A stretch of 64,000 nt of DNA from Candidatus Borrarchaeum weybense (GCA_019057385.1 JAHQJS010000006.1:709038-773037); one strand, 5' to 3'. Positions 4,457-56,956 are shown, counted from the first letter of the stretch. Numbers and translations: made by a program. The notes: generated by a model not told the origin, from the letters alone.

Positions 4457-4513
4457 TCGTAGTGTTAATTATTACATAAATTAGACTATTTAAAATTTTG
4501 GTGGAACTAACCA

Positions 4514-5284: not shown

Positions 5285-5319
5285 TTCTTTACCCATTTTT
5301 TTAGGAGCAAATATAGGAA

Positions 5320-22835: not shown

Positions 22836-22990
22836 TTAGGATCCTCTTTGATATCTTTTATATGTAGGTATCGTTAATGAAGAAATTGCAGTACTTCTAA
22901 AAAAGTATTTTGGACTTCTTAGAAAAAACTTCCAATTTGAAATTAATTTCCAAAAACAATTGCTTCTGTCTGTCTTACCGTTGATTTTAC

Positions 22991-23301
22991 GAGTAGCTAA
23001 GCAAGAAAGCACCAAAGCTTCAGCGTGGTGATGAATTGCGTGAGTGTTCACTTTCAACACTTGCATCGAGGGGTCTCCCTAATAGTTATAAGGTGGTATG
23101 ACGAAGATATCAACGGCTATTGGAGGGACAATACGCATACTTGTAGACAAGGTGCATACTCCGATTGCATCACGATCGTTAGCCGTACCTACGGGGCGTA
23201 GGGATGTTAAGCCTGTGGAGATAAGACCTCCGTAACCCGTAAGGGGATCGAGTCCGTCGTTGAAGCAGGAAGCCTCGATGCTTTAGCACGAGGTAGCTCA
23301 C
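22991..23301 (+). mobile_element. Non-coding IS200/IS605-derived miniature element, copy 2
   Basis: Follows TTAC (22987-22990) and ends in TCAC; aligns with 2497-2815. Confidence 0.85.
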
Positions 23302-40289: not shown

Positions 40290-40912
40290 TGTATCACCTC
40301 CCCATCTATCGTTTCTTTCTATTTGTAAAAGGTAAAACCTACTATAAAAGTCCTAAAGCCCCATTATATAACTACTACCTTAAAAATATTACTTCAATAA
40401 GTTCGAAACACCACAGCAAAAACAGAGAGCTGGATTCAATTCAACATAGAAGTTGGGAGCTGGAATAAGTGGAAGAAACAGCTGGAGAGCTGCAAACAGA
40501 CAGTTTCAGCCATATGAATGTATTTTTGGAAGAATATATGAATGATCGTAGATTGAATTTTTCTACTACCGTAAACGTAACCCATCACAAAAAATGATGT
40601 GAAAAATCCAGGGTTAGTCTATTCAACTATCACATGGACATTCGTGTTTTGGACGACTTTTACTTCGTTTAATGACGATTCTGTTGTGATCTATATAATT
40701 AAAAAGAGGAAAAACCAGATTAAAACTTTAGAAAAATAGAAGGAGGTGTGATTTTGATGCTTCTATCCATAACATGTCATATTGTTCAATTAGTAGTCAC
40801 ATATGGCATTATCATTGCATTTAAGGTTTAGTTTGTTTGCAGTCCTTGAGCGACAACGGAATCCATGATTTTCGCCTATAAGGTGATCCTTATACAAGGT
40901 TATTGAGAAATA

Positions 40913-41389
40913 TTAGATTTTTAATTTCTTTTTAATTTTAGCCGTTATTTCATTACCTAAATCCCGTATATCTACCTGCAATTCTTCTAGTATTTGACTT
41001 TGGACACCAAGAAGAATGCCACCTTCACTTAATGATTGTTCTTTTTTACGCATATCCAGTGTCATTTCAAACTCGCGTACCTTAAGAAAAAATTCGTCTA
41101 TTCGTTGATACAAGGCTGGGTCGTCCAACTCTAATAGTGCTCCGACTACTGCGTCGCTTTTTTCTATCCATTGTTTTGCGGTGATTTTTCCCAGTACTTT
41201 TTCGCGTGCCACTGCATATATTTCGTTTAATAGTGGTTCATATACTCGTTCTGAAAGATATCGACGTCGTTTATCACGCTGTCCTAAAAGAAATTGAATA
41301 ACATTAACAGATCCGCTAATGCCAGCTATAACTAATGAAAATATCGTAATCCACAGCCCAAGAGGAATCCCATTATTTGCTTGAAACAT
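40913..41389 (-). CDS. N-terminal TM anchor plus helical domain, hypothetical
   Basis: TM at residues 8-35; BRE/TATA-like CGGAAAGGTTAAG upstream. Confidence 0.7.
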   Translation of the reverse strand: MFQANNGIPLGLWITIFSLVIAGISGSVNVIQFLLGQRDKRRRYLSERVYEPLLNEIYAVAREKVLGKITAKQWIEKSDAVVGALLELDDPALYQRIDEFFLKVREFEMTLDMRKKEQSLSEGGILLGVQSQILEELQVDIRDLGNEITAKIKKKLKI

Positions 41390-41494
41390 GCTTCATTATT
41401 AAAGCTACAACAACTTAACCTTTCCGTTTGCCAAATCTTGACAAAATCTTTTTTATTCCTTAGTAACATTTAGTGAAATTCAGGAGGGATAAAA

Positions 41495-41725
41495 ATGGTA
41501 AAAGCAGTAGAGATTTTCAAATGCCCTGAATGTCAGAATGAGGACAATGAACAATTTCTTTTTACAGTGGACAAAGAAGGACAACTAAACATATTGTGCC
41601 GCAATTGTAACTGGAAAAAAGGATTTAGACCTATAATAGATTGTTCTAATTGCGGTAGAGAGGTATCCCAGCTCGCCTACAAGTTTTGTCCTTGATGTGG
41701 CTCACAATTACCAGATGAAAGGTAA
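41495..41725 (+). pseudogene. Double Zn-ribbon protein with an in-frame TGA inside the fourth CxxC
   Basis: CPEC..CRNC..CSNC..FCP*CGSQLPDER*; GGAGG upstream. Confidence 0.6.
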
Positions 41726-42075
41726 TTTATGAAGAGGTATTCACCTAGAATAAAATCTAGTTTATTTAATCTATTATAGAATGCCGAAAATTAGAGTTTA
41801 AAGCTTAAGACTAAAATATCTTTAAAGTTTATCCTACCTAAGTGAAAAGGATGGATTTCACGAGGCGTGCTAAACGGGGCGGATTGATTTCAGCCTCATT
41901 TTTTATTTACTTGAAGATAAGTGGCAAATAAAGTGACCTTTGATGCAACCGAAAGAATATCATTTGAACCGTTTCGCAACTACGTCCATTGTTTGTTTTT
42001 GCTAGTATCACATTAAAGGGGGGATGCCCCCCTAAAAAAAGCTTTATTTGTTAAAAAAGCCAATTGTACAAATAG

Positions 42076-42357
42076 GTGAAAAAAATGGTAAAAATTAAGC
42101 CAATAGAAACATGGGTTGAGAATTATGTTGTTAGTACTATTCCAGGTATGTTGAAACAAACAAGATATTGGCTACAGAAAGGCTTTCCAATGGATCACGC
42201 AATAGAAAACGCAATAAAATATGGACGAGGGCAATTACACGCTGGAATCGGAACGACAGTAACTCCAGAACGGGCAGAAACGCTATTTAGAATGTTAGCA
42301 TCCATTGCTAATGCGATGGCTGATTATTGTAGCACTCTCAAGAATGAGAATATATAG
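42076..42357 (+). CDS. Hypothetical protein
   Basis: 93-aa ORF; AGGTGA motif before the internal ATG at 42085. Confidence 0.6.
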   Translation: MKKMVKIKPIETWVENYVVSTIPGMLKQTRYWLQKGFPMDHAIENAIKYGRGQLHAGIGTTVTPERAETLFRMLASIANAMADYCSTLKNENI

Positions 42358-42472
42358 AAAATCCATGAAGAGGAAACAGATTTGACTGACTTTTTCGGCT
42401 ATCCTTATTAAGAGGGGTCTGCCTCTCCAGAACGTAATTTTCCAACACCGCACTGTTCCTTCGGGGCAGACT

Positions 42473-42712
42473 CTATTTTGTTCGACCTAAGATCTTTCGC
42501 CTTAGGATTTTAGGAGAGGCTGGCAAGACCTCTCCTTCTGAAGTGATGTAAGGTACTTCAGCATAAATTATCGGCACCCATAAACTCACTTTTGTTTCTT
42601 TTTTCGTCTTGGATTTCAAGCCTTCTGGCATCATCCTACCATGCTTATCATATCGATGGTATATTACTTTTGCACCACTCTTTTTAAAGCACTCAATTAC
42701 CATAAATATCAA
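42473..42712 (-). pseudogene. Probable chimeric/truncated ORF (DUF3303-like N-terminus)
   Basis: MIFMVIECFK..YHRYDKHGRMMPEGLK resembles the start of a small widespread family, then the sequence character changes abruptly; a GC-rich stem follows the stop. Confidence 0.35.
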
Positions 42713-42796
42713 ATGATTACCTCAAGGAGACTCTTATCTTATAGGGGGAGCACTCTGGCTCGTTATCTGCAAATATTTAAAGAATAGAGTAAATAT

Positions 42797-43117
42797 TTGT
42801 TGGAGGGTATTTTCATTTCAACTAAAAATCCTTGTGTTCGAGAAGCCTGTCTTTATGAAGAATTACCAAACAAGAAAGTACGCTGTGGCGTATGTGAACG
42901 AAGATGTGTAATCCTCAACGGAGAGCGAGGATTTTGTAAAACACGTGAAAATATGGATGGCAAATTGTTTACATTGATTTATGGCGATATTTCATCAATT
43001 TCTGCCAATCCTATTGAAAAAAAACCATTATTTCATTTCTGGCCAGGAAGCCATGCACTAACTGTAGGCTCATGGAGCTGTAATTTTACCTGTCCATGGT
43101 GTCAGAATTGTGGAATT
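42797..43117 (+). pseudogene. AmmeMemoRadiSam-type (PflA-like) radical SAM enzyme, 5' part
   Basis: CGVCERRC..GFCKTREN..NPIEKKPLFHFWPG..SCNFTCPWCQNCGI, then the element; the 8 remaining codons come from the element. Confidence 0.92.
43103..43117 (+). repeat. attL core, 15-bp direct repeat CAGAATTGTGGAATT
   Basis: Identical to 51214-51228; encodes Q-N-C-G-I of the host gene. Confidence 0.93.
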
Positions 43118-43193
43118 GATCATAAAGGTATTACCCTATGTTAATACAAATCAATACCTTATTATAATACTTTCAACACAAATCTTTCCTATT

Positions 43194-43484
43194 ATGACTG
43201 AATCTATTTGGCATGAAAAAATTAAAGAGAAACTAGAACAAGAATACCTAAGAAGAGGATATTCCAAACATTCTATTTTTCCAGAATTTACGGTTATTGG
43301 TTCAAATTATAGAGTTGATTTTGCAATTATAACCGATAAAAAACGAATCTGCTATGAAATAGGTTCTGTTAATACTACCAAAGACCGAATGGATAGAATC
43401 TTTGACTTTTTTGATGAAATCAGACATATCCCTTTTCATGCTGATATTTACGATTATTATTTCATAAAAAATAAAAATGACTAA
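43194..43484 (+). CDS. Small PD-(D/E)XK-like nuclease-fold protein
   Basis: WHEKIK..PEF..YRVDFAI..ICYEIG; likely ATG at 43194 within ORF 43110-43484. Confidence 0.6.
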   Translation: MTESIWHEKIKEKLEQEYLRRGYSKHSIFPEFTVIGSNYRVDFAIITDKKRICYEIGSVNTTKDRMDRIFDFFDEIRHIPFHADIYDYYFIKNKND

Positions 43485-43590
43485 CTCAAAGGAATTATCT
43501 CAATATTATTAATATTTTCATTAAACATTATCCTTTAATAATTTAGATGTGATATAAAATTAGACACAAATAAAAAAATGGGGGATAGAA

Positions 43591-44709
43591 ATACCTATTA
43601 ATCAAATTTTTGAATTTAAATCTGACTGGTTTCAATTTTATCAGGCTGTTCTTAGAAATGAGATAGAGGACGAATCCTTTACAAAAAAATATTTAAAGGC
43701 ATATATAGTCGAATCTAATTTCGAATCTATTGATCAACTTAAAGCATATCACCCAGAGTTAAAGAACAAGATCATTGAATCAAAAGAACAATCTTTTTAT
43801 AATATCAAATATGGAACGCATAAATTCTTATATCTCGATACAGAGAACGATCGTTTTTGGGTTATTCATAGTCTAGAAAGACAAGAGGACATTCACCCTA
43901 AAATTGTTGAACTATTCTGTAATAGTTATCTCCAAGATAAAATATATGTTCCAAATCAAATGATGGAGGATTATCGGAAAAATTATAGTAAACAATCATT
44001 AGGAGCGAGCTTAAACTTTAAACAATTGATTGCAGAGAAAGAACCTAAAGACCAACGATTAAGTACAGATGTTTCAGAAGATCTAGAAGGAGAAATTGAT
44101 AATTACGCATTAAGAATATGGCTTAACAGATCAGAAAAAATGGATTATGTACTTAAAAGTTTCAAACAAATTGGATTGCCAATTAATTATAATTATCTTA
44201 ATTATGCCTTTTATAATGAAGATAATGAACTTATTATGAAAGAGAACTTTCATAGAGATGGTAAATTTACGATTAATAAAGGGATAGAACTTATCCAGCA
44301 TATTAATTTTGTTCACAAAGTTAGAGACGACTATAGTTCAAAATTGAATTTAATTGAAGATTACCGTATTGATTGGACGAAAAAAAAGGGTGATTTAATA
44401 AAAATTCTATTTACAAAGAAAGATATAGACCCCAAAAAACTATATCAGAGTTTCAAGTCCTATAAGTCAACCTTTCGAATGATAATTATCCCATTATTCA
44501 AAGAAAAAGACTATTATTTTTTTGATTGTTTAGATACACACACAGGAGGGCGTTTTTCTTTACAAATATCTAAAAGACAAATTCTTGTTAATCTAAAACC
44601 AGATTCATGCGGTAATGTTGTTTTTCGCTTACTCTCCAATTTACAAAAACATATTTCTTCAGAAATTTCAATTGAAATAGATAATCAAGATTTAAAAATT
44701 CTAAATTAA
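43591..44709 (+). CDS. Hypothetical protein of about 372 aa with probable non-AUG start
   Basis: The frame of ORF 43960 is open from 43564 with protein-like sequence (KAYIVESN..YLDTENDRFWVIHS); only ATA/ATT candidates after GGGGG (43580-43584); C-terminal DTHTGG..SCGNVVFRLLSNLQ. Confidence 0.7.
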   Translation: MPINQIFEFKSDWFQFYQAVLRNEIEDESFTKKYLKAYIVESNFESIDQLKAYHPELKNKIIESKEQSFYNIKYGTHKFLYLDTENDRFWVIHSLERQEDIHPKIVELFCNSYLQDKIYVPNQMMEDYRKNYSKQSLGASLNFKQLIAEKEPKDQRLSTDVSEDLEGEIDNYALRIWLNRSEKMDYVLKSFKQIGLPINYNYLNYAFYNEDNELIMKENFHRDGKFTINKGIELIQHINFVHKVRDDYSSKLNLIEDYRIDWTKKKGDLIKILFTKKDIDPKKLYQSFKSYKSTFRMIIIPLFKEKDYYFFDCLDTHTGGRFSLQISKRQILVNLKPDSCGNVVFRLLSNLQKHISSEISIEIDNQDLKILN

Positions 44710-44728
44710 AAGGAGCTGAAATTCTCCT

Positions 44729-45697
44729 TTGATAAATTTAATACAAGTTTTTAAAATTTCTAGTATAACTAAAACACTTAATTTTTTATTAGCATGTTTT
44801 AAGAAAATGCAAAATCATAGAAGAATAATATATGAACTAGATATTTCTCTACAAAATGATTCAAATTGCAAGCCTGATCTATTTTGTCTTTTAGTTGAGG
44901 AAGGTGAGTTTTATTATAGTCTTTTTGAGATTAAAGCACGAACTGTATTTTCAGAAGAGGATATTAATGAGAAGATAAAACCACAATATTTATCATATCA
45001 AAATATAACCGTTAATGATTTAGATGATTATCTCATTCCAAGAATCCAAAATACAACTATCTATATTAATTATTTATTTTATGACTCAGAGCGACAAATA
45101 ATTGATCAAATAATCAACAGTGTACCAATTCAATCGAACGTATATCATTTAAACTTAAATGAACGCCAAATTATTGCCATTCAATCAAATTCAGGAAATC
45201 TTAATGACCAATTAATGGAGAAGATTATAGAGTTATCCCAAGAGACAAGTCTTTGGAATAAAATATATGTTCCTTTTACCTTTAAGGATATCCAAGATTT
45301 TCGAGGAAAAGGGGGAAAGGAAGTAGATATTCATAACAGATCAGGTATAATTCTTGCTGTTAATTTTATGATGTTTGTTCTTTCGAGAAAAATTAGAAAA
45401 GAAGATACACTTTTCCTAGTGGATGATTTCATAAATTATGTATTCCAAAATAATTTTGAGAACTTAAATGTAGGTTGGGAACAAAGAAAAACATTTAAGA
45501 AAAAATTTAGATTATTTTTACAGTTTATTTGTAATGAATTACCAAAAAAAATTGACATTGATCCGATTATTGAGAAAACTGATGGATATTACAGAATTTT
45601 ATTAAGACACACAGCTACATTAGAAAGGAGAATAAGTGAAATCACGCAAGAATTAATCAAATTTTTAAAACAAAAAAGACTACCTGAGTTTTATTGA
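44729..45697 (+). CDS. PD-(D/E)XK-motif nuclease-like protein
   Basis: KPDLFCLL..SLFEIKAR..Q motif; 19 bp after the preceding gene. Confidence 0.65.
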   Translation: MINLIQVFKISSITKTLNFLLACFKKMQNHRRIIYELDISLQNDSNCKPDLFCLLVEEGEFYYSLFEIKARTVFSEEDINEKIKPQYLSYQNITVNDLDDYLIPRIQNTTIYINYLFYDSERQIIDQIINSVPIQSNVYHLNLNERQIIAIQSNSGNLNDQLMEKIIELSQETSLWNKIYVPFTFKDIQDFRGKGGKEVDIHNRSGIILAVNFMMFVLSRKIRKEDTLFLVDDFINYVFQNNFENLNVGWEQRKTFKKKFRLFLQFICNELPKKIDIDPIIEKTDGYYRILLRHTATLERRISEITQELIKFLKQKRLPEFY

Positions 45698-45925
45698 ATA
45701 ATAGATTTTTACAAGCAGTTTCTGGGCATTTTCCTTGAAGATAGAACTTTATGTACCGTATCTAAAAAAAGAATGAATTTTATACCTTAATTATCTAGTA
45801 AAATATCACTTGATTTTAAATACCCATTTTAAATACCTTTTTTCATAACAGGTTACTTTTCCTTATCAAAACAAGTAAATAGTATGTCAATTACCTATCA
45901 TACTAAGATATATCAAAATTATAAT

Positions 45926-46480
45926 CTACTGTTCTACTGAAAACCTCGCAAGTGATTGTTGATGTTGGTAAATATCTTCTGTATATCTTGAAATAAAATC
46001 AGTATTTACTCCTTTTTTTCTATCCTGAGTATATTTTGCATTTAACTGGCAGTCTAAATTATTATTCGGTAATGCTACATCAAATTCATATTGTAATGAG
46101 ATATTATCTTTTATATCCTCCATTTCTATTCTCAATGGAAATACCTGTTCCTGTTCCCATTCGCCTTTCCAATTCCTTCCCTCACATCTCCCCTCTATTT
46201 CTCTATCATTATCAAATATCTTTAGGGTAGGTGCTTCAACGGTTGTGTTTTTTCCACCAGCATTGATAATTCTAATTTTAACCCATAATCTATGTGTATG
46301 GTGTTCACTTTCCATTATCTCAACACTAAATTTTTGTCGTTCTGTAATAAATCGAATAACTTGTATTATCGTTCCACTTGTACCTATTGCACCTAATACT
46401 AAAGCTATTATTGTAGTCAAATCTGTTGTTGATACTGTTGTTGCTGTTTGTGTTGCATTTTGTAACATCATTTCTATCAC
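45926..46480 (-). CDS. TM-anchored beta-rich hypothetical protein
   Basis: TM IIALVLGAIGTSGTIIQVI followed by VKIRIINAGGKNTTV. Confidence 0.7.
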   Translation of the reverse strand: MIEMMLQNATQTATTVSTTDLTTIIALVLGAIGTSGTIIQVIRFITERQKFSVEIMESEHHTHRLWVKIRIINAGGKNTTVEAPTLKIFDNDREIEGRCEGRNWKGEWEQEQVFPLRIEMEDIKDNISLQYEFDVALPNNNLDCQLNAKYTQDRKKGVNTDFISRYTEDIYQHQQSLARFSVEQ

Positions 46481-46759
46481 TACTAATTACCCTTTCAATA
46501 TTATTAGATTTCTGTCCTGCTATCTATTTCTTCTAATAAGGTATCTAAATCTTCTATCCAATTACCTAACATCCTATCATTTTTTATACCTCATTTAACA
46601 TTCTACCTATTATTTCTCTATAACTAAAAATTGAGAAAAAACTGAGAGATAGTTTTAGAAAACAAAAAGAGGATTCTTACTTTGGATGCAAAATAATTAA
46701 GTTTAAGATATGTAGAATAAACTCTTTTTTATCCTATTATAGAAAATTAGATCTTGTTT

Positions 46760-47252
46760 TTATATACTTAAGTTCCGTAAATTATCTAATATATCATCTA
46801 TCTTTTGTTTTAATCTCTCTAACTTATTCTTATTCTCTGTAATAAAATCAGTACTGCTCTCTACGTTTATTATCAGATCACGATCAAAAATAGCATTTAT
46901 CTTTTCAACATCAACCTCAATATCAGCATCCACATAAATTTTTCCTAACTGAGATAGAAATGGATCTGTAAGCAAATATAAAATTCCACTGGATCGGATA
47001 AAAATCCAAGCGTTATCATCTAAATTTATAGGCGGAATGGCAAAATCCCTAATGTTCTGATTCTAAAATTTTTATATGTCCTTCAATTTTTAATTTATTT
47101 TGAGTTAATTCAATGATAAGATTCTTTTTGACCTTATCCAATTCTTGATTTCTTCTATCCTTTTCTTTCTTAACATCCCACGCTAAGCCTAATAGAAAAC
47201 CAATAATAACTCCTATTAAACCTGAAATTGTTGGATCTATTTTTAACATCAT
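46760..47252 (-). pseudogene. TM-anchored protein split by one frameshift near 47060
   Basis: ORFs 47049-47252 and 46760-46975 join through an open shifted frame (NQNIRDFAIPPINLDDNAWIFIRSSGILYLL); span is 3n+1. Confidence 0.7.
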
Positions 47253-47272
47253 ATTCTCGATCCTTAGAGATA

Positions 47273-47615
47273 TTATTCACTACGTTTCATCTGCTCAGTC
47301 ATAATATCTTTAACCTTTTCTTCATCAACAACTTCTACTTTTACCCCATTTATTCTTACTTCTGCAATTTTTTTATCCTTTAACTTTTCTTTCAACCAAA
47401 AAGCAAATTTGATAATATTTCCGATATTACTAATTATTGTTGTTATTAGAACAATATCTGGAATACCAATTGCTTTTCTAATGTATGTACTCCCATTCTA
47501 CTGTTACATCCTCAGAAATAGATTTTCTTGTTTCTCCTACTGAGAGTTCCTTTGTTTCAAATAACTCAAACTCTAAGGATTTCTCAAATGTTTCAATCTC
47601 TATATCAAATCTCAT
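47273..47615 (-). pseudogene. Small protein split by one frameshift near 47490
   Basis: MRFDIEIETFE..VTVEW, then shifted frame ..IRKAIGIPDIVLIT..WLKEKLK..RINGVKVEV..*; span is 3n+1. Confidence 0.6.
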
Positions 47616-47730
47616 GGAAAAAGTCTATGTTTTCTTCTTCTTATTAAAATTATATGGCAAATTTCTAAAAAATTGAAAAATCCCCATTTCACTAATTTTA
47701 TTATATTCAGAAATTCTATATCTTTAAAAC

Positions 47731-48522
47731 ATGTCAATTTTCAAAGACTTAAAAAAATATAAAGAACACATACTCCGCATTGTTGTCCTCATAGTTATAG
47801 TAATAATCGTACCGCTAATTATTAGGTTACTTTTCCCCGAGTTTTTTAATATGTTTGTAATCCCCATAGTTGTCGGATTGATCACATCTGCTATTTGGTA
47901 TTATATAGTTTGGACTCTCTTTATTTATCCAACACAAAAAAGGGCAGAAGTTGTAAAGAAAGCAGTCTTTAAACTATTACTTAACTCTGAGATCCATTAT
48001 CCCCTTGGTGTAATAATTTTTAATCTTCTTCTTAAAGAGGATAAAACACCCGAAAACTTTTATAGGAATATCAAAAGCTATGTAGAGGCAAACCCTCAAA
48101 TATTTCAAGATTCAAATCTCTTAATCAATTATTTGAAAGCCATTTCTTTGGATGAATTTCACCAAGGCTTAATTGAGAAAATGACTCACTTAGATGATCA
48201 CACATGGAACAAAATAATAGATGCTACAATTAACTTAAAAAAAATTCTTAGTGATTTTCACACTCGTTATCCTCTTCATTACTCCAACGCTTGTAACATC
48301 TATCATAACGATCATCGCCATTACCTTCATGTTTCTTGTATCTATATTCTACATCGTTTATTTCCACACATCCAAATTTTTTATTCGCTATTTCTTTTCT
48401 CTTCTTACGTTTCTTCCTTCTCTTCTTATCTCTACTTAGTTCTATCAATTCACGCTTTGCATCTCTTGATATTTTTTCAAGATCAATCTTACTCATTTTC
48501 TTCACTTAAATACTCTGTCTAA
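47731..48522 (+). CDS. 2-TM membrane protein; the last ~90 codons probably reflect run-on through a lost stop
   Basis: Two N-terminal TMs; after the A-run at about 48238-48244 the ORF is the antisense of 48248-48505. Confidence 0.5.
   Translation: MSIFKDLKKYKEHILRIVVLIVIVIIVPLIIRLLFPEFFNMFVIPIVVGLITSAIWYYIVWTLFIYPTQKRAEVVKKAVFKLLLNSEIHYPLGVIIFNLLLKEDKTPENFYRNIKSYVEANPQIFQDSNLLINYLKAISLDEFHQGLIEKMTHLDDHTWNKIIDATINLKKILSDFHTRYPLHYSNACNIYHNDHRHYLHVSCIYILHRLFPHIQIFYSLFLFSSYVSSFSSYLYLVLSIHALHLLIFFQDQSYSFSSLKYSV
48248..48505 (-). CDS. Small basic protein (uncertain)
   Basis: K/R-rich 85 aa; co-oriented with 48618-48803. Confidence 0.4.
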   Translation of the reverse strand: MKKMSKIDLEKISRDAKRELIELSRDKKRRKKRKKRKEIANKKFGCVEINDVEYRYKKHEGNGDDRYDRCYKRWSNEEDNECENH

Positions 48523-48617
48523 CTCAGTTTTACTCAATTTATGGTTCATAATGTTCAATTTAGGTATCCTATGATACCCCCCTACCTTAACATGGTTTTT
48601 AGAAATCAGATAAAACA

Positions 48618-48803
48618 CTACACTTGACTCATTTTTATTAAATTAGCATTAATGATCTTATCTTTCTTCTTATGACCATTACCATTATTATTGCCAAATG
48701 TATCAATCATTTCCCTTTTTTCCCATATTCTGGTTTTTTTGTCGTACTCTCTACTCGCGTCTGAACAACATCCTATATGCAGGCTATAGCCCCATATATT
48801 CAT
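48618..48803 (-). CDS. Small hypothetical protein (uncertain)
   Basis: Preceded by a strong BRE-TATA CCGAAAGGTTTATATAG (minus strand, about 48852-48868). Confidence 0.35.
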   Translation of the reverse strand: MNIWGYSLHIGCCSDASREYDKKTRIWEKREMIDTFGNNNGNGHKKKDKIINANLIKMSQV

Positions 48804-48945
48804 CTCGGTTCAGGAGATTCAGTATCTCCCAATTAACTATTACCTCAGCACCTATATAAACCTTTCGGTTGATATTAGAGCATATTTCCTTATTTTGAAC
48901 AATTTTATGGTATATCTCAATCTTATAGTATATCTAATAATTTAG

Positions 48946-49089
48946 TTATACCAAAAACCGAATAAAATTATACTTTATAGAATATTGTTATACGTTATTT
49001 TGATTTTGTTATACTTTTCAAAAATAGCAGAATAAAAACCTTTTAATCTATAATTAATAAAAAAAGAAAGTGATACAATAATTGTATCA
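48946..49089. repeat. Phased TTATAC repeats plus a perfect palindrome
   Basis: TTATAC at 48946, 48968, 48988 and 49009 (20-22 bp spacing); TGATACAAT-A-ATTGTATCA at 49071-49089. Confidence 0.7.
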
Positions 49090-49147
49090 AAATAGGGATT
49101 AGGGAAGGAACTTTGCGTTACCAATTCGCTTTTCCTTCTCTTTTTTC

Positions 49148-50497
49148 CTACCAGTATTTATTTTGATTATTACCTAGCACATTCTCTACTCGTTCCTCTA
49201 ATTCTTCTATGCCACTTCTCAGATATAATGATGTTACTCTCAAATTGGCATGACCTAACATCTTTTGTATATCTGATAATAACATCCGTTCACCGTGTTC
49301 ATTCTGGGCTTTTTCCCATATCTTAGCTGCGGTATATCTAACATCATGCGGAGTTACCCTGAATCCTACCTTCTTTGAAATTTCCTTGTAATATTTCCAG
49401 ATAGCATTTCTATATGGTCTTTTTCCTTGCCTTGTAGTTATTAGGTAATCATGGTTCGGTCTAAATAACATTCTTTGTTTCATCTGTCTATTCAAATATC
49501 GTACTTGTTCATCGGTCAATGTCAATATTCGTTCCTTTGGAATATTACCCTTTGACTTGCCGTATATCTTTATTCTTTTACTTTCTAAGTCTATATGTTC
49601 TCTTTTTATCCGTGTATACTCTTCTCTTCTCAATCCAAAGTTCAATCCTAACCAAAAAACAAATCTTAGTATCGGATGTCTTACTGTTTTAAATATTGTT
49701 TTTACTTGTGATTCTGTTAATGATACTCTTGTCGTTTCTGTCCTGTGTTCATTACTATAGTTATTTCTGATCCATTTTCTTATCTTTTTTCTAGTCTTTT
49801 TAGATATACATACATCATTTTCTTCATCCCACGTCAAAAAACCAGCTATAGTATATGCCTTGTTCACTAGCGTATTTACTGAATTAGCTTTCTGATCTCG
49901 TTTTGCATCATAAACACCTTTCGTTTCTAAATGATTGAAATATTCTATCATATCACTTAATTCTAACTCTTGAAATCCCTGTTTATTCCTTACTTCAATG
50001 AGATAACTTTCAAAGTCTACTAGAATGGGTATATTGGTTACTAGACTTGAACGCGCAAACTCACCAGAATAATAATAATCTCTTAATATATCACTTAAAT
50101 TTTCTACATCTGTTTTATTATTATTTTCTGGTATCTCTAAGCCAGCTAATTCTATAGCTGTTATCAATGATCCAAATCGTCTTTTGTAAGTAGCTCCATC
50201 TGGTAACTCTTTTCTTCGCAAATCTGGATATTTCGGTACTCTTCCATGTTCTTCAAAGAATTTTACTAAAACATTCAATAATTCTTTATCAGAATACACA
50301 TAGTTTCTAGGTAAATATCCAGCTAGTCTTACTGCTTTTGACCAGCTACCAAAATGCCTTGTATATGTCATCGGTGAAGGATTCAAAGGATTACCTTTGA
50401 AATCCAATGCTTGAGGAACTTTACCATGCTGTTCATGCAAATCTCTTATGTATTGTAATAAAGATTCATCGGTGTATTTATTGTACTTATTCCCCAT
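49148..50497 (-). CDS. Tyrosine recombinase with two N-terminal homing-endonuclease-associated repeats
   Basis: Catalytic set GLRREE (R), YGK (K), HDVR, LGH, LY; repeats YTDESLL..HGKVP..YTRHFGSW..AVRLAG and YSDKELL..HGRVP..YKRRFGSL..AIELAG. Confidence 0.92.
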   Translation of the reverse strand: MGNKYNKYTDESLLQYIRDLHEQHGKVPQALDFKGNPLNPSPMTYTRHFGSWSKAVRLAGYLPRNYVYSDKELLNVLVKFFEEHGRVPKYPDLRRKELPDGATYKRRFGSLITAIELAGLEIPENNNKTDVENLSDILRDYYYSGEFARSSLVTNIPILVDFESYLIEVRNKQGFQELELSDMIEYFNHLETKGVYDAKRDQKANSVNTLVNKAYTIAGFLTWDEENDVCISKKTRKKIRKWIRNNYSNEHRTETTRVSLTESQVKTIFKTVRHPILRFVFWLGLNFGLRREEYTRIKREHIDLESKRIKIYGKSKGNIPKERILTLTDEQVRYLNRQMKQRMLFRPNHDYLITTRQGKRPYRNAIWKYYKEISKKVGFRVTPHDVRYTAAKIWEKAQNEHGERMLLSDIQKMLGHANLRVTSLYLRSGIEELEERVENVLGNNQNKYW

Positions 50498-51072
50498 TAG
50501 ATCAACGCCTTAACTCCTTTACTGAAATCCCATTTAATTCTACCTATTCCATTTAGATCAAACAAGACATCAGCTAGAATATTCTTGTCAGGATACTCTT
50601 CCAATGGAATATTTTCTTGTTCCCAGTCAAAATACTGAGCTATTCCTTCATCCTCATTTCTGATTGCCTTTTCTAATTCATCAAGACTGATCCAATCTTG
50701 TAGATATTTCTCTTTGAATTTCTCTTGTTGTAATAGTCTCCTTAATCTATTGATAGCTATTTCTCGATTCTTTGTTTCATTCATTTCTTCCAATTGGAGA
50801 TCGGATAATGTTATTGATCTTTTCACTGCCTTTATCTCGTTTCTCAAGTTCTTTTGAATATCTTTAAGTAAATCCATTACTGGATTGATGTTTACTGAAC
50901 TTTGGATAGCCAGCTCTGAATCTGGATAAAATAATATTCCCCTAGAAATAAAGAACTCACAGGCATATCTGACAAACTCTGAAGTATCCATTTCGTTGTC
51001 TTCTGCAAACTTCTTGATTCTTTCCTTTTGTATGGATGATGCTTTCACTACGATATGTTCATTCTTTACCAA
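50497..51072 (-). CDS. Ribbon-helix-helix protein translationally coupled to the integrase
   Basis: HIVVKAS..KERIKKFAEDNEMDTSEFVRYAC (RHH pattern); TAATG overlap with the integrase start. Confidence 0.75.
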   Translation of the reverse strand: MVKNEHIVVKASSIQKERIKKFAEDNEMDTSEFVRYACEFFISRGILFYPDSELAIQSSVNINPVMDLLKDIQKNLRNEIKAVKRSITLSDLQLEEMNETKNREIAINRLRRLLQQEKFKEKYLQDWISLDELEKAIRNEDEGIAQYFDWEQENIPLEEYPDKNILADVLFDLNGIGRIKWDFSKGVKALI

Positions 51073-51176
51073 TTATTCACACGCCCTTGTTTTAGTTCTC
51101 TAAAAAGTCGTATGGTTATCCAGTACGCGGGATTTTACCCCGTACTTTCATCTCTAATACTCTTTATACCCTAGTA

Positions 51177-51196
51177 CCTATAAATACTTTACGGTT
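51177..51196 (-). promoter_or_regulatory. BRE-TATA promoter of the RHH-integrase operon, next to attR
   Basis: Minus strand AACCGTAAAGTATTTATAGG, similar to the promoter near 48860; hairpin at 51122-51146 in the leader. Confidence 0.55.
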
Positions 51197-51213
51197 ATTA
51201 ATACTTTTATAGC

Positions 51214-51228
51214 CAGAATTGTGGAATT
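51214..51228 (+). repeat. attR core CAGAATTGTGGAATT
   Basis: Identical to 43103-43117. Confidence 0.93.
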
Positions 51229-52026
51229 AGCAAAACCGAACCAAATTCACGTCGAACAAACTATATGAGTCCAGAAGTATTCGAAAAAACTATGAAAGCG
51301 AATGATTGCATTGGATCATCGATTAGCTTTAATGAACCTACCCTGCTTTTGGAATACTCTCTTGATGTATTTGATACTGTGAAAGAATCTGGTCTATATT
51401 ATAATACATATATAACAAATATGTACATGACAGAAGAGGCTTTGAAATTACTCACAGAACATAAATGCGATGCGTTTGCCGCTAATATGAAGGGCGATGC
51501 AGAAGTTGTCAAAAAGCACTGTGGTGCTGATATAGAACTCATATGGAGAAACCTAAAGTTAGCAAAGGAAATGGGTGCACATATCGAAGTAATCACACTC
51601 GTCATACCCACAATCAATGATGATGTGCAAACCCTAAAAGAGATTGCCACTCGTATCTATGATGAGTTAGGAAAGGACACACCTTGGCATTGCACTCAGT
51701 TTTTTCCTGCATATAAATCTAGGGAAATAGGACTCAAAAAGAGAACACCAATCGAGACACTGGAAAAAGCCTACGAACTTGGAAAAGACGCTGGTTTGCG
51801 ATTTGTGTATTTGGGAAATGTCCCAAATCACCCTTATGAAAACACATATTGTCCTTCCTGCAATGCGTTATTGATTAAACGGTTTATTTTTGACTCACAG
51901 ATCTTTTTTAATGTTAAAAAAAGAATAGATGATAGAATTGATTTTGAAAAAAGGTGTCCTAACTGTGGAGAACATATTGAAATATTTGGTGAGTTCATTA
52001 GAAAAGAAAAAGGGGTTTTTAGCTAA
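51229..52026 (+). pseudogene. AmmeMemoRadiSam-type radical SAM enzyme, 3' part
   Basis: SKTEPNSRRTNY-MSPE..SFNEPT..PWHCTQFFP..FVYLGNVP..ENTYCPSC; in frame with the 5' part across the att core. Confidence 0.92.
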
Positions 52027-52047
52027 GTCTTTATGAAGAAGGCTTCG

Positions 52048-53577
52048 TTAATGGACCATAACTAACTCGGGATGACGTCGCTCATAATAGCGGATATATG
52101 CTTTTAGAACTTCGATCATTGCACGGATTCCCATCTTAACTATAGCCTTATGACCTATTTCGCTGGCAACCACTCTATAATTTCTGTCCATGTGTTTAAT
52201 GTTGTGTCTCCAGCAGTCCAATAGAATACGAGCATGGTATGGTGTCATATTGTCTGCTATGAACGCTCTGGAGTTTTTCATACTTGTAACCTGCATCGGG
52301 ACGAAGAAAAGTGGTATATACAAGTGAGGAAATGCGTCAAGTCTTTTTATTAGTTCAATAGTATCTTTCATTTCATCTGGTCCTTCACTGGGAAGTCCTG
52401 ATACTAATGTACAGACATTCGTCCAACCCAAATTGGCACAAGTTCGTAGAGCGTCGTATATCATGTCTGGATATTCTTCTGATGAGAAAGGAAGGGCTTT
52501 ACCATGCATTATTTCTTCAATTGTTTTAGAGCATCCTGTTTCGATTCCTGGTTGACATCCATAATACCTATGTCCTTTGCTTCGGAGGTATTTAGTTAAT
52601 CGTTCAAAAAAGTCTGGGTCGAAAGCCATTGGTGCTAAAGTCGAATGGGTTACAAACACCCGACTTATGCCAACATCCTCAAAGAGTGTTTTGTAAAGAT
52701 TCATTATAGCATCTTCGTCCGGGTAGAAGTGCTTTGAGTTGGAACCATATAAGAACACATCCTCTGACTGTAGACACATAGAATTATCACGGCTTCCCTT
52801 AGCATTTATTTTTGCATCATGCAATATTTTTTCAAGAGGGAAATCTCGCATCTTTCCAGCAGTGTTCGGGGCACAGAATTTACATCCTCTCCCGCATCCT
52901 CGTGAAATCTCCGTATAAGTGCCAAGCGCTGGACCCTGTATTAGAGGCACATCTTTTGGTTTTACTTGTCTTCCATAAAACACTCTTCTGTCAAGGCTTC
53001 CATTATTTTCCGGGCTTGCAAGTTGGCTAAAGAGTTCTGGAATTACATATTCTCCTTCGCCGATTACTAAATGATCTATACCAAATTTATCCATGTGAGC
53101 TTCGACTTCCCATGCACCTGGGCCGCCCATAACAACTTTAAATCCATATTTATTCTTTAGTTCCTTAACTTTTCTCATTAATCTAAAATATTCGATTCGG
53201 TTATGTGGAATGCCCTTAAAAATGGTGCTCCACGTTGATGTAGCAGGACCGATGCCCAATGGGTCTTCTGCTGAAATACCAACGATTTTTGTATTCTTGT
53301 TTATCAACTTATCCAAATAAAGCGAATGTGTAACTTTTACTTGTTCTCTGGAAAAACCACTCTGTATACATGTTGCTTCAATGGTCCTAAGACCGAGAGT
53401 TGCCCGAACTAAAGTTCCATCAGGGTAAGCTGGTTCGAGTGGGCAAAAGAACTTGAAGTAAATCCAGTGTGGACATATATTTTGTGGTAAACAAGCGCCA
53501 AATCCGACGTATGGGATCCCATTGTAATCGCTTGTTAGTGATAGATCTGAGGTTAATACGATTTCTGCACGTGCCAT
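52048..53577 (-). CDS. B12-binding-domain radical SAM protein
   Basis: EISRGCGRGCKFC; VVMGGPGAW..IGEGE. Confidence 0.88.
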   Translation of the reverse strand: MARAEIVLTSDLSLTSDYNGIPYVGFGACLPQNICPHWIYFKFFCPLEPAYPDGTLVRATLGLRTIEATCIQSGFSREQVKVTHSLYLDKLINKNTKIVGISAEDPLGIGPATSTWSTIFKGIPHNRIEYFRLMRKVKELKNKYGFKVVMGGPGAWEVEAHMDKFGIDHLVIGEGEYVIPELFSQLASPENNGSLDRRVFYGRQVKPKDVPLIQGPALGTYTEISRGCGRGCKFCAPNTAGKMRDFPLEKILHDAKINAKGSRDNSMCLQSEDVFLYGSNSKHFYPDEDAIMNLYKTLFEDVGISRVFVTHSTLAPMAFDPDFFERLTKYLRSKGHRYYGCQPGIETGCSKTIEEIMHGKALPFSSEEYPDMIYDALRTCANLGWTNVCTLVSGLPSEGPDEMKDTIELIKRLDAFPHLYIPLFFVPMQVTSMKNSRAFIADNMTPYHARILLDCWRHNIKHMDRNYRVVASEIGHKAIVKMGIRAMIEVLKAYIRYYERRHPELVMVH

Positions 53578-54028
53578 GTAAATTCACCTGCCCCTTAAGA
53601 CAAGAAAGTTTCGTCATAGTTCTGAATAAATAGATAGGATTCTATACAATAGTTAACGATCATTTTTAGTACACAATTACATTTTCTAATTTGTATTAAT
53701 TTTACGTGAGTACTATCGAGGTCTAAAACACGTTAACCGATATTTTAGCAGTTGTATCATTAACTTGTATTTAAGAATCTTTTCTATTTCATACACTTAA
53801 AAGTATATAAATAGTGCGATTTTGGAGTATATAGTGCTATATAGCGCTGCGATATTGGAAAAAACGTCAATAAGTATAATAGTCTTATCATTTGGGTAGA
53901 AATCTTTCACATCAATTACGAGTAAAAGTCGTTGTTTATCTCTACCATAGAGTAACAACCACCATTTAATTTTTATATTAAAACTTATGACTATAACTCT
54001 CCTTGAAAAAAATTGAGGGATAGAGTTA

Positions 54029-56956
54029 ATGCAAATTAGCGCAAATCTGGCTCAGTATACAAGTTTATTCGTTATTATTTTAGTGATACTTGCTGTGATC
54101 ATTGTTTGGAAGGAAAAATGGATTATTGGAATGGCATTTAGAAATTTCAAACGAAAAAAAGTCAGAAATACGCTGACTGTTATAGGTGTGCTCTTTAGTG
54201 TTGCTATGTTGGTAGGGTTTAATATAGCAAGACAAAATGTGACAAGTACATTTTACAATACTATTGAACTTGCTGCGGGTAAATTAGATCTTGAGGTTAC
54301 GAGAGCTGATGGTGAGCCATTTCCAGAGGACCTAATGCATCTTCTTGACGATATAGATGGCATTGAAGCGTATGCCCCAAGAATTCAGCGTTACTGTGTG
54401 ATTTACGTTCATGATAGCTGGAATTCTACGATGGCTACAGTTATTGGAATAGATCCAACATTGGACCAAGCTTTTGGAGACATCTTTGACATTAATGGAT
54501 CTCAACCAATCAATCACCTAGTAACTGATGGTAATGCAATTGTTTCGGAATCATTAAAGGATGGTATTTCTGGAGAACAAGATGAAAAAATTGTGAATGC
54601 ATCAATAGGAAATAAACTTAACATTAAATACTATCATGATCCACCACGTTCCCGATCCAAAGGATTTAATATTGCTGCTTTTGCGGAAGGTAAGGGAAAA
54701 ATCGCTCAAGTTGGCTATGGGCGTGTTGTCATCGTAACTTTAGATAGTGCTAGACAATTTACCAAAACTTGGCGTAAGATTGACAAAATAATAGTAAATC
54801 TTGAAGAAGAAAGTAGAAAAGATTACAAAGCCGTTATAGCTGATATAGAAGTTAAACTCGGTAAAGATTTCAGAGTTGACGCAGTTAGAGAAAGTTTACT
54901 GGCGGTTGCAGAAGGCGCGGTATCGGGTTTTGACACTGCTTTGAATTGGGCTGGATTAATTACCTTATTGGCGTCTGTATTTCTAGTATTTAATAGCATC
55001 GTGATGACAGTAACAGAAAGGCGTTACGAGTTAGGCATAATGCGTGCTATCGGCATGTCAAAATTTCAGGTGTTTCGTCTAATTTTATATGAGGTAATTA
55101 TTTTAGGTGGAATAGGATCTATTATAGGTTCATTTGGAGGAGTCTTAGTTGCTCATGGAATAACTACTTACGTTTCAAATACAACTGTTTATGGCTTTCG
55201 AGTCATAATAGAGTCTGTTGAGCTAGATCCTTCAATTATTTTTAGTGGTTTTATCATGGGCTTTCTTTTTGCAGTTGGAGGTGCCCTTTTCCCGCTAGGA
55301 TCCGTAGTCACTATGAAAGTCGTTACAGCTTTACATGGTGATTCCCACGAAGCCGGAAAGAGGAAAATTTCCCGTGGATTATTAGTTGGCGGCATTATAT
55401 TAGCTATAGTAGGATTCGGATTACTCTTTATAGCCCCATCGATTCCTGCAGCTAACTTATCTGATTTCTTGTCTATAACGCTCTTATTATGTATCTCTGG
55501 GGTCTCAATAGCGGTCTCAAAATACAATAGAAAAGCAGCCAGTCTTGTCGCAGGGATCGGTCTTACTGCCACTGGAGCACTCATTACAATAACCGCGGTT
55601 TCCTATTTGAGTGAGATCGTTTTACTTGTTGGAAGCATAATTCTCTGCGGATCACTTCTTAGCATTGTATCGCGAGGCTTTTATCGATTATTGAATAGTA
55701 TACCTGCCTTTCGAACAGTTGCTAAAATTGCTAGTAGAAACCTAACACGCCGTCCTCTTCGATCAACTCTTACATTTGGAATTTTCACGATCGCGATCTC
55801 TCTCTCGATCTTATTTGCATCAATTAACTCAGCTGTTGATATAGGTATAACTCATTACATTGAGGAAGGACTCAATATGGACTTAATAGTGACAACAAAT
55901 ACTGGTGCTCCACCAACTCTAGCAGGGAATCTATCACGAATTGAAGGTGTTCATTGGACGAATGACACGCCTACAGAAGAATGGAGACCTGGTGTAAGCG
56001 TAGCTGAACTATCTGGGGCAAAATTTGAAATCTGGGATGAAGGAGAGACCTCTTTATTAGTGGCTGTGAATTCTTCAACCTTTCCTCTTGCTATTGAACA
56101 GGATTTAATCGAGCCTAATCCGAATACGACAGATATCGTTGCCCTCTTTGACCAATTAGGAGGAACAGGAGATAATAAGTGCATCATAAGTGATAGACTT
56201 GCAGAGGAACTTCATGTGAAAGTTGGTCAAAAAACCAAACTTGAAATATCTGCCCATGGAAATTCTACAGAATTTAAAATCATTGGTATTGTACACAATG
56301 ACTTGATTGGTTACCCGAAGGGTGGATATTTCTGCATTATTGATATAGAAAAATACTATGATTTCGGTTTTGATGATGATGTGCATGTTTTTTACGTTAA
56401 ACTTCGAAATCACCATTGGAATGGAACGGTCGTTGATCAAGATAAAGTTGCACAACAGATTCTTGATTTATATGGCGATGAGTATAATCTAAGTATTATA
56501 AAGACAAAAGACATCGTAGAAGAATGGCGGGTGAACGTGACAGAAACTACGCAATTTATGGCTGTTCTTTCATCGTCATCTATCATAATAGCTTTACTTT
56601 GTTTAGCTACAACAATGATACGAATTGTCCAGGAAAGACAACGTGAAATCGGATTGCTTCGCTCTGTTGGATACTACAGATCCGAGATAGTCAAACTCCT
56701 TCTTGGCGAATCATTACTCTTAGCTGTTCTAGGACTATCAGTTGGGATCATAAACGGCTATATTCTGGCTGCAAGCTATCTCCCACATTTCAAGGAAATC
56801 GGTTTCACGCCGTATGAAGTGACATTCGTGTTTCCAGCTCTTCAAACTATTATAGTGGCCATTCTCGGGATAGTCGTTGCGACAGTAGGTACCGCTTTTC
56901 CAGCATACAAAGCACTTCGGATGAGTCCTGCACAAGCTGTACGATATACGGGCTGA
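54029..56956 (+). CDS. ABC transporter permease with two MacB/FtsX halves
   Basis: ERRYELGIMRAIG and ERQREIGLLRSVG; large extracellular domains; no ATPase gene adjacent. Confidence 0.9.
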   Translation: MQISANLAQYTSLFVIILVILAVIIVWKEKWIIGMAFRNFKRKKVRNTLTVIGVLFSVAMLVGFNIARQNVTSTFYNTIELAAGKLDLEVTRADGEPFPEDLMHLLDDIDGIEAYAPRIQRYCVIYVHDSWNSTMATVIGIDPTLDQAFGDIFDINGSQPINHLVTDGNAIVSESLKDGISGEQDEKIVNASIGNKLNIKYYHDPPRSRSKGFNIAAFAEGKGKIAQVGYGRVVIVTLDSARQFTKTWRKIDKIIVNLEEESRKDYKAVIADIEVKLGKDFRVDAVRESLLAVAEGAVSGFDTALNWAGLITLLASVFLVFNSIVMTVTERRYELGIMRAIGMSKFQVFRLILYEVIILGGIGSIIGSFGGVLVAHGITTYVSNTTVYGFRVIIESVELDPSIIFSGFIMGFLFAVGGALFPLGSVVTMKVVTALHGDSHEAGKRKISRGLLVGGIILAIVGFGLLFIAPSIPAANLSDFLSITLLLCISGVSIAVSKYNRKAASLVAGIGLTATGALITITAVSYLSEIVLLVGSIILCGSLLSIVSRGFYRLLNSIPAFRTVAKIASRNLTRRPLRSTLTFGIFTIAISLSILFASINSAVDIGITHYIEEGLNMDLIVTTNTGAPPTLAGNLSRIEGVHWTNDTPTEEWRPGVSVAELSGAKFEIWDEGETSLLVAVNSSTFPLAIEQDLIEPNPNTTDIVALFDQLGGTGDNKCIISDRLAEELHVKVGQKTKLEISAHGNSTEFKIIGIVHNDLIGYPKGGYFCIIDIEKYYDFGFDDDVHVFYVKLRNHHWNGTVVDQDKVAQQILDLYGDEYNLSIIKTKDIVEEWRVNVTETTQFMAVLSSSSIIIALLCLATTMIRIVQERQREIGLLRSVGYYRSEIVKLLLGESLLLAVLGLSVGIINGYILAASYLPHFKEIGFTPYEVTFVFPALQTIIVAILGIVVATVGTAFPAYKALRMSPAQAVRYTG

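Follow-up and report, generated by a model that had tools for sequence, protein, structure and literature searches.

An integrase-bearing element splits a radical SAM gene directly after its Fe-S motif in the Asgard archaeon Candidatus Borrarchaeum weybense

Results

Location and boundaries of the element

We analyzed a stretch of 64,000 nucleotides from the genome of Candidatus Borrarchaeum weybense (GCA_019057385.1 JAHQJS010000006.1:709038-773037), referred to here as the window, in which a gene for a radical S-adenosylmethionine (SAM) protein of the AmmeMemoRadiSam type is cut in two by an integrative element carrying its own tyrosine recombinase. The 5' fragment of the gene (codons 1-102; 42797-43102, plus strand) is separated from the 3' fragment (codons 108-372 and the stop; 51229-52026, plus strand) by an element body of 8,096 bp (43118-51213), or 8,111 bp when one core is included. 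Each border is formed by a copy of the 15-bp core CAGAATTGTGGAATT, of which one lies at attL (43103-43117, plus strand), where it encodes codons Q103-I107, and the other at attR (51214-51228, plus strand). An earlier interpretation of the window, made from the sequence alone and called the sequence-only reading below, had described identical 15-bp cores around 8,111 bp in a probable Asgard archaeon; the coordinates and the single-core empty sites found in relatives confirm the former, and the identity of the host, Ca. Borrarchaeum, bears out the latter.

Within the whole 4.18-Mb genome the core is present exactly twice, at these two places, and the copies enclose 8,111 bp of low-GC DNA, with a GC fraction of 0.27-0.33 in the element vs approximately 0.37 in the flanks. 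In silico fusion of 42797-43117 with 51229-52026 yields 1,119 nt, i.e. 372 codons and a stop without any internal stop, reading ..SWSCNFTCPWC-QNCGI-SKTEPN.., in which QNCGI is followed by SKTEPNSRRTNYMSPE. The single 372-codon AmmeMemoRadiSam-type open reading frame (ORF) that the sequence-only reading had expected from joining the cores was thereby reproduced.

The strongest single point is the existence of empty sites in relatives. In Candidatus Borrarchaeum yapensis (contig L037), positions 771-1272 correspond to window 42616-43117, with 86% nucleotide identity over that segment, while positions 1258-7002 correspond to window 51214-56956, and these two alignments overlap by precisely the 15 bp of the core. 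In another Borrarchaeota genome (L038) the outcome is almost identical, with an overlap of 16 bp around the core, and one core copy is present at each of the two empty sites. The uninterrupted gene, which had been suggested as something to look for in related genomes, is carried by the congeners G004 and G001. Further to the left, a comparison of L037:1-770 with window ~41850-42615 shows that synteny is lost approximately 180 bp before the start codon of the radical SAM gene, beyond which the DNA differs.

Chance 13-15-mers at comparable spacings occur by the dozens around each integrase locus of this genome, with its AT-rich flanks. A 15-bp repeat is by itself unremarkable in such AT-rich DNA, and the case therefore rests on its coincidence with independent features. 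Decisive is the combination of an in-frame repeat at the gene break, a drop in GC to 0.27-0.31, an adjoining integrase gene, empty sites in relatives, and an identical contig from a separate assembly. The latter is a 34.6-kb Logan contig, an independent re-assembly of sequencing run X1, which matches window 40500-54500 without a difference and spans both junctions. In addition, attL is crossed by a contig from run X4 (another study, record 21), which is approximately 95% identical and includes 36 host-specific nt. Since X1 may be the source sample, independent support from sequencing runs comes from this X4 contig alone. Neither an Rfam family nor a tRNA gene was detected within the 64-kb window, which excludes a tRNA gene as the target of integration.

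The interrupted gene and its paralog

The break lies directly after the CxxxCxxC motif of the protein, which reads CNFTCPWC and occupies codons 95-102 (43079-43102). The 5' fragment matches TIGR04337 at model positions 4-90 (83.6 bits), and the 3' fragment matches it at positions 101-330 (131.2 bits) as well as PF04055; against the cut-off of 220 bits, uninterrupted orthologs score narrowly above (230.5 bits in L014 and 247.3 bits in L018), the split gene being scored as halves. At the amino acid (aa) level, the 3' fragment is 88% identical to its G004 counterpart. From the left, the 5' fragment reads on for nine codons inside the element before it meets a stop; on the right, the 3' frame is open from four codons before the core, and its first start codon is the ATG at 51265. 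Given that the left frame stops after nine codons and that the right frame lacks a start until this ATG, the element supplies no replacement for either half of the gene, and the sequence-only reading, which had claimed the same, is borne out by both fragment frames.

A second, intact gene copy, whose possible existence the sequence-only reading had raised, was found at C4:917859-918836. This paralog scores 367.9 bits in the genome search and 368.3 bits as a translated ORF, and is 38% identical to the split gene. The genome further encodes one AMMECR1 protein (C8:149279-149803) and one Memo protein (C7:29795-30625), neither of which lies beside either radical SAM paralog, and the neighbors of the split gene are unrelated to it (a B12-binding-like radical SAM protein, a MacB/FtsX permease and a TPR protein). 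An ortholog of the split gene was detected in 157 of 400 Asgard genomes, among them 36 of the 90 high-quality ones, and its presence in only part of these genomes indicates a gene that is widespread but dispensable. Two orthologs were unusual at the site itself. That of G040 (L028:2180-2310, minus strand) contains an additional T in a run of Ts within CNFxC; this throws the sequence out of frame and, in a single-contig genome, is probably a homopolymer sequencing error; that of G184 (L119:729-1599) apparently lacks codons 70-117, with the whole Fe-S motif included.

Both halves of the gene are free of stops, frameshifts and any excess of non-synonymous change. With G001 as the outgroup, 31 synonymous and 9 non-synonymous codon changes were counted on the G000 branch, compared with 20 and 9 on the G004 branch, i.e. 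there is no relaxed constraint on the G000 branch. The lack of decay suggests a recent insertion or, alternatively, a gene that is restored from time to time.

Integrase, candidate regulator and end sequences

The recombinase gene (49148-50497, minus strand) is located 700 bp from the right core, and encodes a protein of 449 aa, in which two N-terminal HNH_repeat modules precede an intact catalytic domain. The N-terminus matches PF18780 (HNH_repeat) in two stretches with 92.2 bits, and the catalytic domain matches PF00589 with 79.3 bits over residues 260-428 (cut-off 27.1); the protein also matches the integrase family phrog_1 of PHROGs with an E-value of 1.4e-26. The catalytic residues R..HxxR..(H/W)..Y can be read from the translation in the segments GLRREE, PHDVR, LGHAN and SLYL. 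An assignment to XerA (NF040815) was rejected, as the protein scores 89.3 bits vs a cut-off of 220 and its gene is part of a low-GC insert rather than of a dif-type locus. A suicidal integrase of the SSV type was ruled out as well, since the gene's own ORF, 49148-50497, is unbroken, with the cores 700 bp and 6 kb away.

Upstream of the integrase gene, a 191-aa ORF (50497-51072, minus strand) has a ribbon-helix-helix (RHH)-like N-terminus, with a NikA-like RHH match at an E-value of 0.005, below the Pfam cut-off. Its stop overlaps the integrase start codon, both touching base 50497, which suggests translational coupling, and its product is a candidate directionality factor or regulator. A GC-rich hairpin, GTACGCGGG-ATTTTA-CCCCGTAC, occupies window 51119-51150, approximately 50-75 bp upstream of the start of this RHH-integrase operon, and may be an operator or a terminator.

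Both ends of the element carry short AATACYTT boxes, with three beside attL (43125-43173; at 43125 on the minus strand, and at 43153 and 43166 on the plus strand), which are candidate arm-type sites, and two AATACTTT boxes beside attR (51183-51207, plus strand). Of the 19 AATACYTT matches in the window, five are no more than 70 bp from an element end, compared with approximately 0.04 expected in those 140 bp from the density across the window. Apart from these boxes, only one 12-mer direct repeat stands out between the two ends, and no exact inverted match of at least 8 nt was found between the two 250-bp element ends.

Cargo genes

The gene content of the element falls into a left module on the plus strand (a 96-aa ORF, an MJECL33-family frame and a 322-aa ORF), and a right module on the minus strand (the 191-aa RHH-like ORF and the integrase gene), between which stand two ORFs that resemble membrane proteins. 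The 96-aa ORF (o96; 43194-43484, plus strand) has a sub-threshold Pfam match to SfsA, with an E-value of 0.13, and no PADLOC match. The 322-aa ORF (44729-45697, plus strand) had no match in local Pfam, PHROGs or PADLOC, and an MJECL32 lead comes from the atlas (rank 7, score 0.94, PF27326); on L138 and L139, the gene beside the MJECL33 homologue has a weak match to PF27326 as well. Of the two ORFs in between, one encodes 184 aa (45926-46480, minus strand), resembles an N-terminally anchored membrane protein and has DUF726 as its only family match, below the cut-off (E-value 0.006), and the other encodes a hydrophobic protein of 263 aa (47731-48522, plus strand) without a family match.

The MJECL33-family gene is an open frame of 381 codons (43564-44709, plus strand; atlas score 0.96, 227 shared features). 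Its 17 homologues, which include the window's own 249-aa form (P0183), all carry PF25924; the full-length ones measure 348-371 aa and cover 92-98% of the frame, and most of them start with M approximately 8-13 codons into the open frame. The 132 open codons upstream of the first ATG in the window (43564-43959) align with these full-length homologues, and either a non-canonical start or the loss of the start codon would explain this arrangement. An AlphaFold2 model of the protein was poor (pLDDT 55.7), and its best matches in the PDB were to common alpha/beta domains, with a Z-score of 8.1 or less. We found no mention of MJECL32 or MJECL33 in the literature.

Scans with Pfam, PHROGs and PADLOC recognized no replication, capsid or conjugation genes among the element proteins, which agrees with what had been noticed from the sequence alone. 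A defense function for the cargo was considered and rejected, as no element protein has a PADLOC match.

Candidate introns and inteins close to the att core position in other archaea

Several orthologs from other archaea carry two further kinds of inserts at almost the same place. Their insertion points (T|GG for candidate introns, TGG|TGT for inteins, and TGT|CAG.. for the att core) all fall within 8 nt, with the intron point 5 nt and the intein point 3 nt upstream of the att core. The sequence-only reading had recommended a search for other cargo at the same codon, and had also proposed a conserved coding motif as attB. Candidate introns of the bulge-helix-bulge (BHB) type and inteins were indeed found within 8 nt, and they support the idea of a coding sequence as an address; the 15-bp core itself is not conserved in that sense, since QNCGI is specific to Borrarchaeum and other Asgard orthologs read QNW(D/E)I. 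It follows from this genus specificity that the att core lies beside, and not on, the deeply conserved Cys codons.

The inteins were identified in the ortholog of G032 (L033:4361-7009, G032:C17), which is an ORF of 882 codons with an intein of approximately 510 aa between W101 and C102, and in clusters from a range of other archaea. The G032 intein has the junctions CPW|CVSPDT...FLVSN|CQNW, i.e. an N-terminal Cys, a C-terminal (S/H)N and Cys+1, matches PF14890 (Intein_splicing) with 48.3 bits (cut-off 35.8), and contains the LAGLIDADG-like segment LGFLFGDGY. In at least ten other clusters of archaeal proteins, CPW runs into the N-terminus of an intein; both junctions are visible in nine of these, and several more clusters, one of them from MSBL1, reveal just the C-terminal junction, (S/H)N|CQN. 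These intein-bearing proteins are P0004-P0014, P0021 and P0023, with named clusters from Thermoproteota, Bathyarchaeia and Brockarchaeota, and one cluster at the CPW|C site has a mini-intein.

Three Asgard orthologs contain much shorter inserts inside the Trp codon of CPWC: one of 29 nt in G012 (L017:2225-2310, minus strand; identical copy at L132:7119-7167), one of 52 nt in G036 (L019:1405-1510, plus strand), and one of 53 nt in G026 (L021:2235-2345, minus strand). The common context is ..UGC CCA U|AG...CGGGYAR|GG UGU CAG.., with AU UGC in L019. None of the three lengths is a multiple of 3, and each insert adds an in-frame stop (TAG across the 5' junction) as well as a frame shift. Pairing by hand in L017 and L021 gave a helix, a 3-nt bulge, a 4-bp helix, a second 3-nt bulge and a helix, in which the outer helix is ACAU:GUGU, the bulges are AU|A and AG|G or AA|G, the distal hairpin has 8-10 bp, and the central helix varies between GCCC:GGGU and GCCC:GGGC, a compensatory difference. 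Minimum free energy folds are near-equivalent, with a 3-bp CAC:GUG helix, a 5-bp central helix and a 2-nt 3' bulge, and in L019 the same central helix and first bulge are found, with a shifted and relaxed outer helix. If each strand is cut behind the second nucleotide of its bulge, removal of the inserts leaves uninterrupted ORFs of 361, 365 and 399 aa containing CPWC, CPYC and CPWC, respectively.

The inserts are best explained as candidate BHB introns in a protein-coding gene, as judged by their sequences and predicted folds. Translational bypassing or read-through of the TAG was rejected, as a matching landing codon is lacking, the reading frame is altered, and only removal of the insert rebuilds the W/Y codon. 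The complete Atabeyarchaeia genomes are of the same family as G036 and G026, and G016, of the same genus as G036, is without the insert. A search of metagenome contigs with a strict intron-boundary pattern returned only the G012 sequence again.

The classical BHB intron of an archaeal pre-mRNA is that of the crenarchaeal cbf5 gene, in Desulfurococcales and Sulfolobales (PMC2738675). Atabeyarchaeia have been described as exceptionally rich in tRNA introns, in a report that does not discuss mRNA introns (bioRxiv 10.64898/2026.10.13.758758), and a paper on the mobile elements of Atabeyarchaeia mentions neither introns nor inteins. We put at about even the chance that the codons at the end of CxxxCxxC are a landing pad shared by selfish elements acting at the DNA, RNA and protein levels, with the 29-53-nt inserts, seen in Atabeyarchaeia-like genomes and one further Asgard lineage, being true mRNA introns spliced by the endonuclease, the first outside the crenarchaeal cbf5. 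A further, putative step would be to attribute the preference of the integrase for coding targets to its homing-endonuclease-type HNH_repeat modules.

Discussion

Proposed mechanism and competing explanations

We consider it highly probable that the locus holds a site-specific selfish integrative element of Ca. Borrarchaeum, which knocks out a redundant radical SAM paralog. The recombinase would have joined the 15-bp attP core of a circular form of the element with the identical attB at codons 103-107 of the amrS-like gene, and this integration would have duplicated the core as attL and attR while cutting the gene after CxxxCxxC. The catalytic domain probably acts on the core, and the HNH_repeat modules probably bind the AATACYTT boxes as arm-type sites, with the coupled RHH-like protein likely serving as directionality factor or regulator. 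As the element brings no substitute for the missing gene half, the insertion would amount to a knock-out, which could in principle be reversed by Int-mediated attL x attR recombination, and which the host would tolerate, the split gene being a second, dispensable paralog. The element would then be a selfish passenger using a coding sequence as a reliable address, as the inteins and BHB introns at neighboring codons in other archaea appear to do. The insertion is probably recent, and it is not fixed in the genus.

A number of points weigh against this interpretation. The intact paralog, being only 38% identical, may not share the function of the split gene. The assignment of the AATACYTT boxes as arm-type sites, possibly bound by the HNH_repeat modules, is purely inferential. 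No replication or transfer function was identified among the element proteins with Pfam, PHROGs or PADLOC. The MJECL33 frame has no ATG, GTG or TTG before 43960, and a cargo gene without a start may mean that the element is already decaying and stranded. Finally, contigs of the runs X1-X4 contained neither a 43117->51229 joint nor a circle junction, and contigs cannot show rare forms. Joints in X4 (sides of 21-29 nt, 90% likeness) are probably due to relatives or repeats, and its 43035->51327 joint, which perhaps represents the uninterrupted ortholog of a relative, is too weak for use.

The sequence-only reading had left open whether the element is a parasite exploiting a coding site or an excision-controlled switch. 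A host-serving switch would be a domesticated element whose regulated excision restores the radical SAM gene, as in 'active lysogeny', and several observations speak for it: excision would precisely restore the ORF, the gene halves have not decayed, the integrase and both cores are intact, and no autonomous replication or structural genes were recognized. However, an element of the skin or nifD type is expected to be fixed at its site, whereas here G004 and G001 have the uninterrupted gene and lack the element, and G002 has no ortholog at all (the G003 contig begins at codon 141 and is uninformative on the site). The stronger AmmeMemoRadiSam paralog is intact, orthologs are patchy across Asgard genomes, plainly selfish inteins and introns occupy neighboring codons elsewhere, and no excision product was seen, in contigs that are unable to show rare forms. 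We therefore regard a switch as quite improbable; of the two original alternatives the parasite is upheld, by the absence of the element from G004 and G001 and by the nearby inteins and introns, and the switch lacks support and faces an intact paralog, one of the two findings that together were named in the sequence-only reading as refuting it. Somewhat more plausible, if still unlikely, is a stranded remnant, i.e. an element that integrated in the same way and is now immobile, so that the gene is permanently inactive and both will decay. It is the start-less MJECL33-like gene, unlike most full-length homologues, that keeps this explanation alive, and the lack of replication and transfer genes in the three database scans is compatible with it; yet the integrase frame with its catalytic residues and the RHH gene are intact, the cores are identical, the gene halves show no stop, frameshift or non-synonymous excess, and a variant of approximately 95% identity is present in a sample from another study.

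Split genes with working pieces occur in some archaea, and the two fragments might likewise associate into an enzyme that still works, as a 115-aa N-fragment with CxxxCxxC and a 253-aa C-fragment starting at ATG 51265, the latter under an outward-facing promoter within the AT-rich right end of the element. Both fragments are open and conserved, and TATA-like AT-rich sequence is found 50-60 nt upstream of ATG 51265. Without a non-canonical start, residues 108-119 would nevertheless be missing from the pieces produced, the promoter and its expression are assumed, and no such two-gene arrangement exists in any other of the 157 ortholog-bearing genomes, which makes a two-piece enzyme, promoter included, very improbable. 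That the locus is an artefact of assembly or binning, with an unrelated element joined to two gene halves, is scarcely credible. The genome is a metagenome assembly with an estimated contamination of 7%, but the 34.6-kb Logan contig is identical over 40500-54500, the contig of the other study crosses attL, and the element is bounded by a 15-bp in-frame duplication of which relatives have one copy, a configuration that a chimera would not yield.

Comparison with known systems

Only a few untested examples of integration into protein-coding genes are on record for archaea (PMC8371274). Most similar to the present element are archaeal ones with non-suicidal integrases of the pNOB8-like kind and an attB in a coding gene, for instance BJ1, Msmi-Pro1 and NitGar-E6; in the Halorubrum virus BJ1 the target is the gene for HMG-CoA reductase, and in NitGar-E6 a gene of the AsnC family (PMC8371274). 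The element described here resembles them in that its integrase is intact after integration, a short core is duplicated, the target is a coding gene, and the element is small and cryptic with mostly unknown cargo. It differs in the two N-terminal HNH_repeat (PF18780) modules of its integrase, in its Asgard host, and in cutting its target in mid-gene, directly after the catalytic motif, without replacing the part that is lost.

Similarities and differences also exist with respect to other insertions that split genes. Excisable switches of this kind are known in bacteria, including the sigK skin element of B. subtilis, the nifD, fdxN and hupL elements of Anabaena, and the comK prophage of Listeria. 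As in those systems, a recombinase-bearing insert interrupts an ORF that precise excision at short direct repeats would restore; the bacterial switches, however, are fixed in their lineage and excised as part of a host program, whereas the congeners G004 and G001 lack the present element. With inteins that encode homing endonucleases it shares the place, the gene family and the use of a conserved coding site as a safe address, but inteins are removed at the protein level and leave the gene functional, while the integrase element would abolish the gene until it is excised from the DNA. The 29-53-nt candidate introns are related to the element in the window by position only. The inserts of G012, G026 and G036 fold like the cbf5 BHB introns, and symmetric cleavage at the bulges would restore the frame; they differ from the cbf5 introns in residing in a radical SAM gene and in an Asgard phylum, and in being candidates recognized by the folding of their sequences.

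To our knowledge, the family of integrases that combine HNH_repeat modules with a tyrosine recombinase has no characterized member, and the mobile elements of Asgard archaea are barely charted. The locus provides a clean example of both, with an exact attL, attR and attB, an uncharacterized HNH_repeat integrase architecture, and candidate arm sites. Archaeal integrase elements in coding genes as such were known; the occupation of one site at several levels and the candidate Asgard mRNA introns are the more interesting part. One short gene stretch with three kinds of elements offers a natural system in which to ask why selfish elements converge on the codons of a catalytic motif. If the introns are real, the archaeal lineage nearest to eukaryotes would join those with endonuclease-dependent splicing of mRNA, and such Asgard genes would be mis-annotated as pseudogenes or split genes.

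Related integrases and other repeats

An exhaustive search of 1.8 billion representative proteins with the integrase returned mostly matches to the HNH_repeat part and few full-length relatives, so that proteins with HNH_repeat and integrase over the full length make up few clusters at 50% identity; a word-indexed protein search with the integrase found only proteins sharing HNH_repeat, and queries of IMG/VR with the integrase and the 322-aa ORF found no relatives of the element. In its own genome there is no other copy of the element DNA or of its cargo genes, the sole likeness being three integrase paralogs on C7. A metagenome contig (L133) carries an integrase fragment that is 66% identical, beside an o96 homologue that is 75% identical, and contains neither the 15-bp core nor a radical SAM fragment. 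On another contig (L134), an HNH_repeat integrase stands beside a radical SAM gene, and was dismissed as a further case of the same target, since that gene is not related to amrS.

The three C7 paralogs lie at ~572236-573731, ~592720-594402 and 670414-672586 (L125, L126 and L128), each within an insertion of 1.5-2.2 kb, as defined by synteny with congeners, that holds essentially only the integrase gene. The cleanest, C7:670414-672586, is situated approximately 12 codons before the stop of a transporter resembling the major facilitator superfamily (MFS), the frame of which is completed from the insert, and only a 6-bp CTTTAG repeat is visible there. When ORFs restored across repeat pairs were sought at the three loci, chance open frames only were obtained. 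Judging by their gene content, these inserts may be minimal self-mobile integrase genes.

The cargo module has a counterpart in an Asgard-like assembly, where L136:5994-10892 (GCA_019058355.1 JAHPZG010000092.1), together with L137, carries an MJECL33 gene that is 74% identical, a 323-aa neighbor and a 374-aa ORF. This MJECL33/32 module is flanked by two POR-gamma (PF01558) fragments, with no annotated integrase, which suggests another gene-splitting insertion with the same cargo module. The C7 inserts, L133 and L136 are leads to a family of integrase elements that target coding sequences and are possibly minimal.

Elsewhere in the window, at 2493-2815 and 22987-23301, we observed two copies, 86% identical, of a dispersed repeat of approximately 310 bp that resembles a miniature inverted-repeat transposable element. 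It gave 53 BLAST matches across the genome, with 74-98% identity, of which about half are full-length and the rest are pieces of 43-100 nt, and it is also numerous in congeners.

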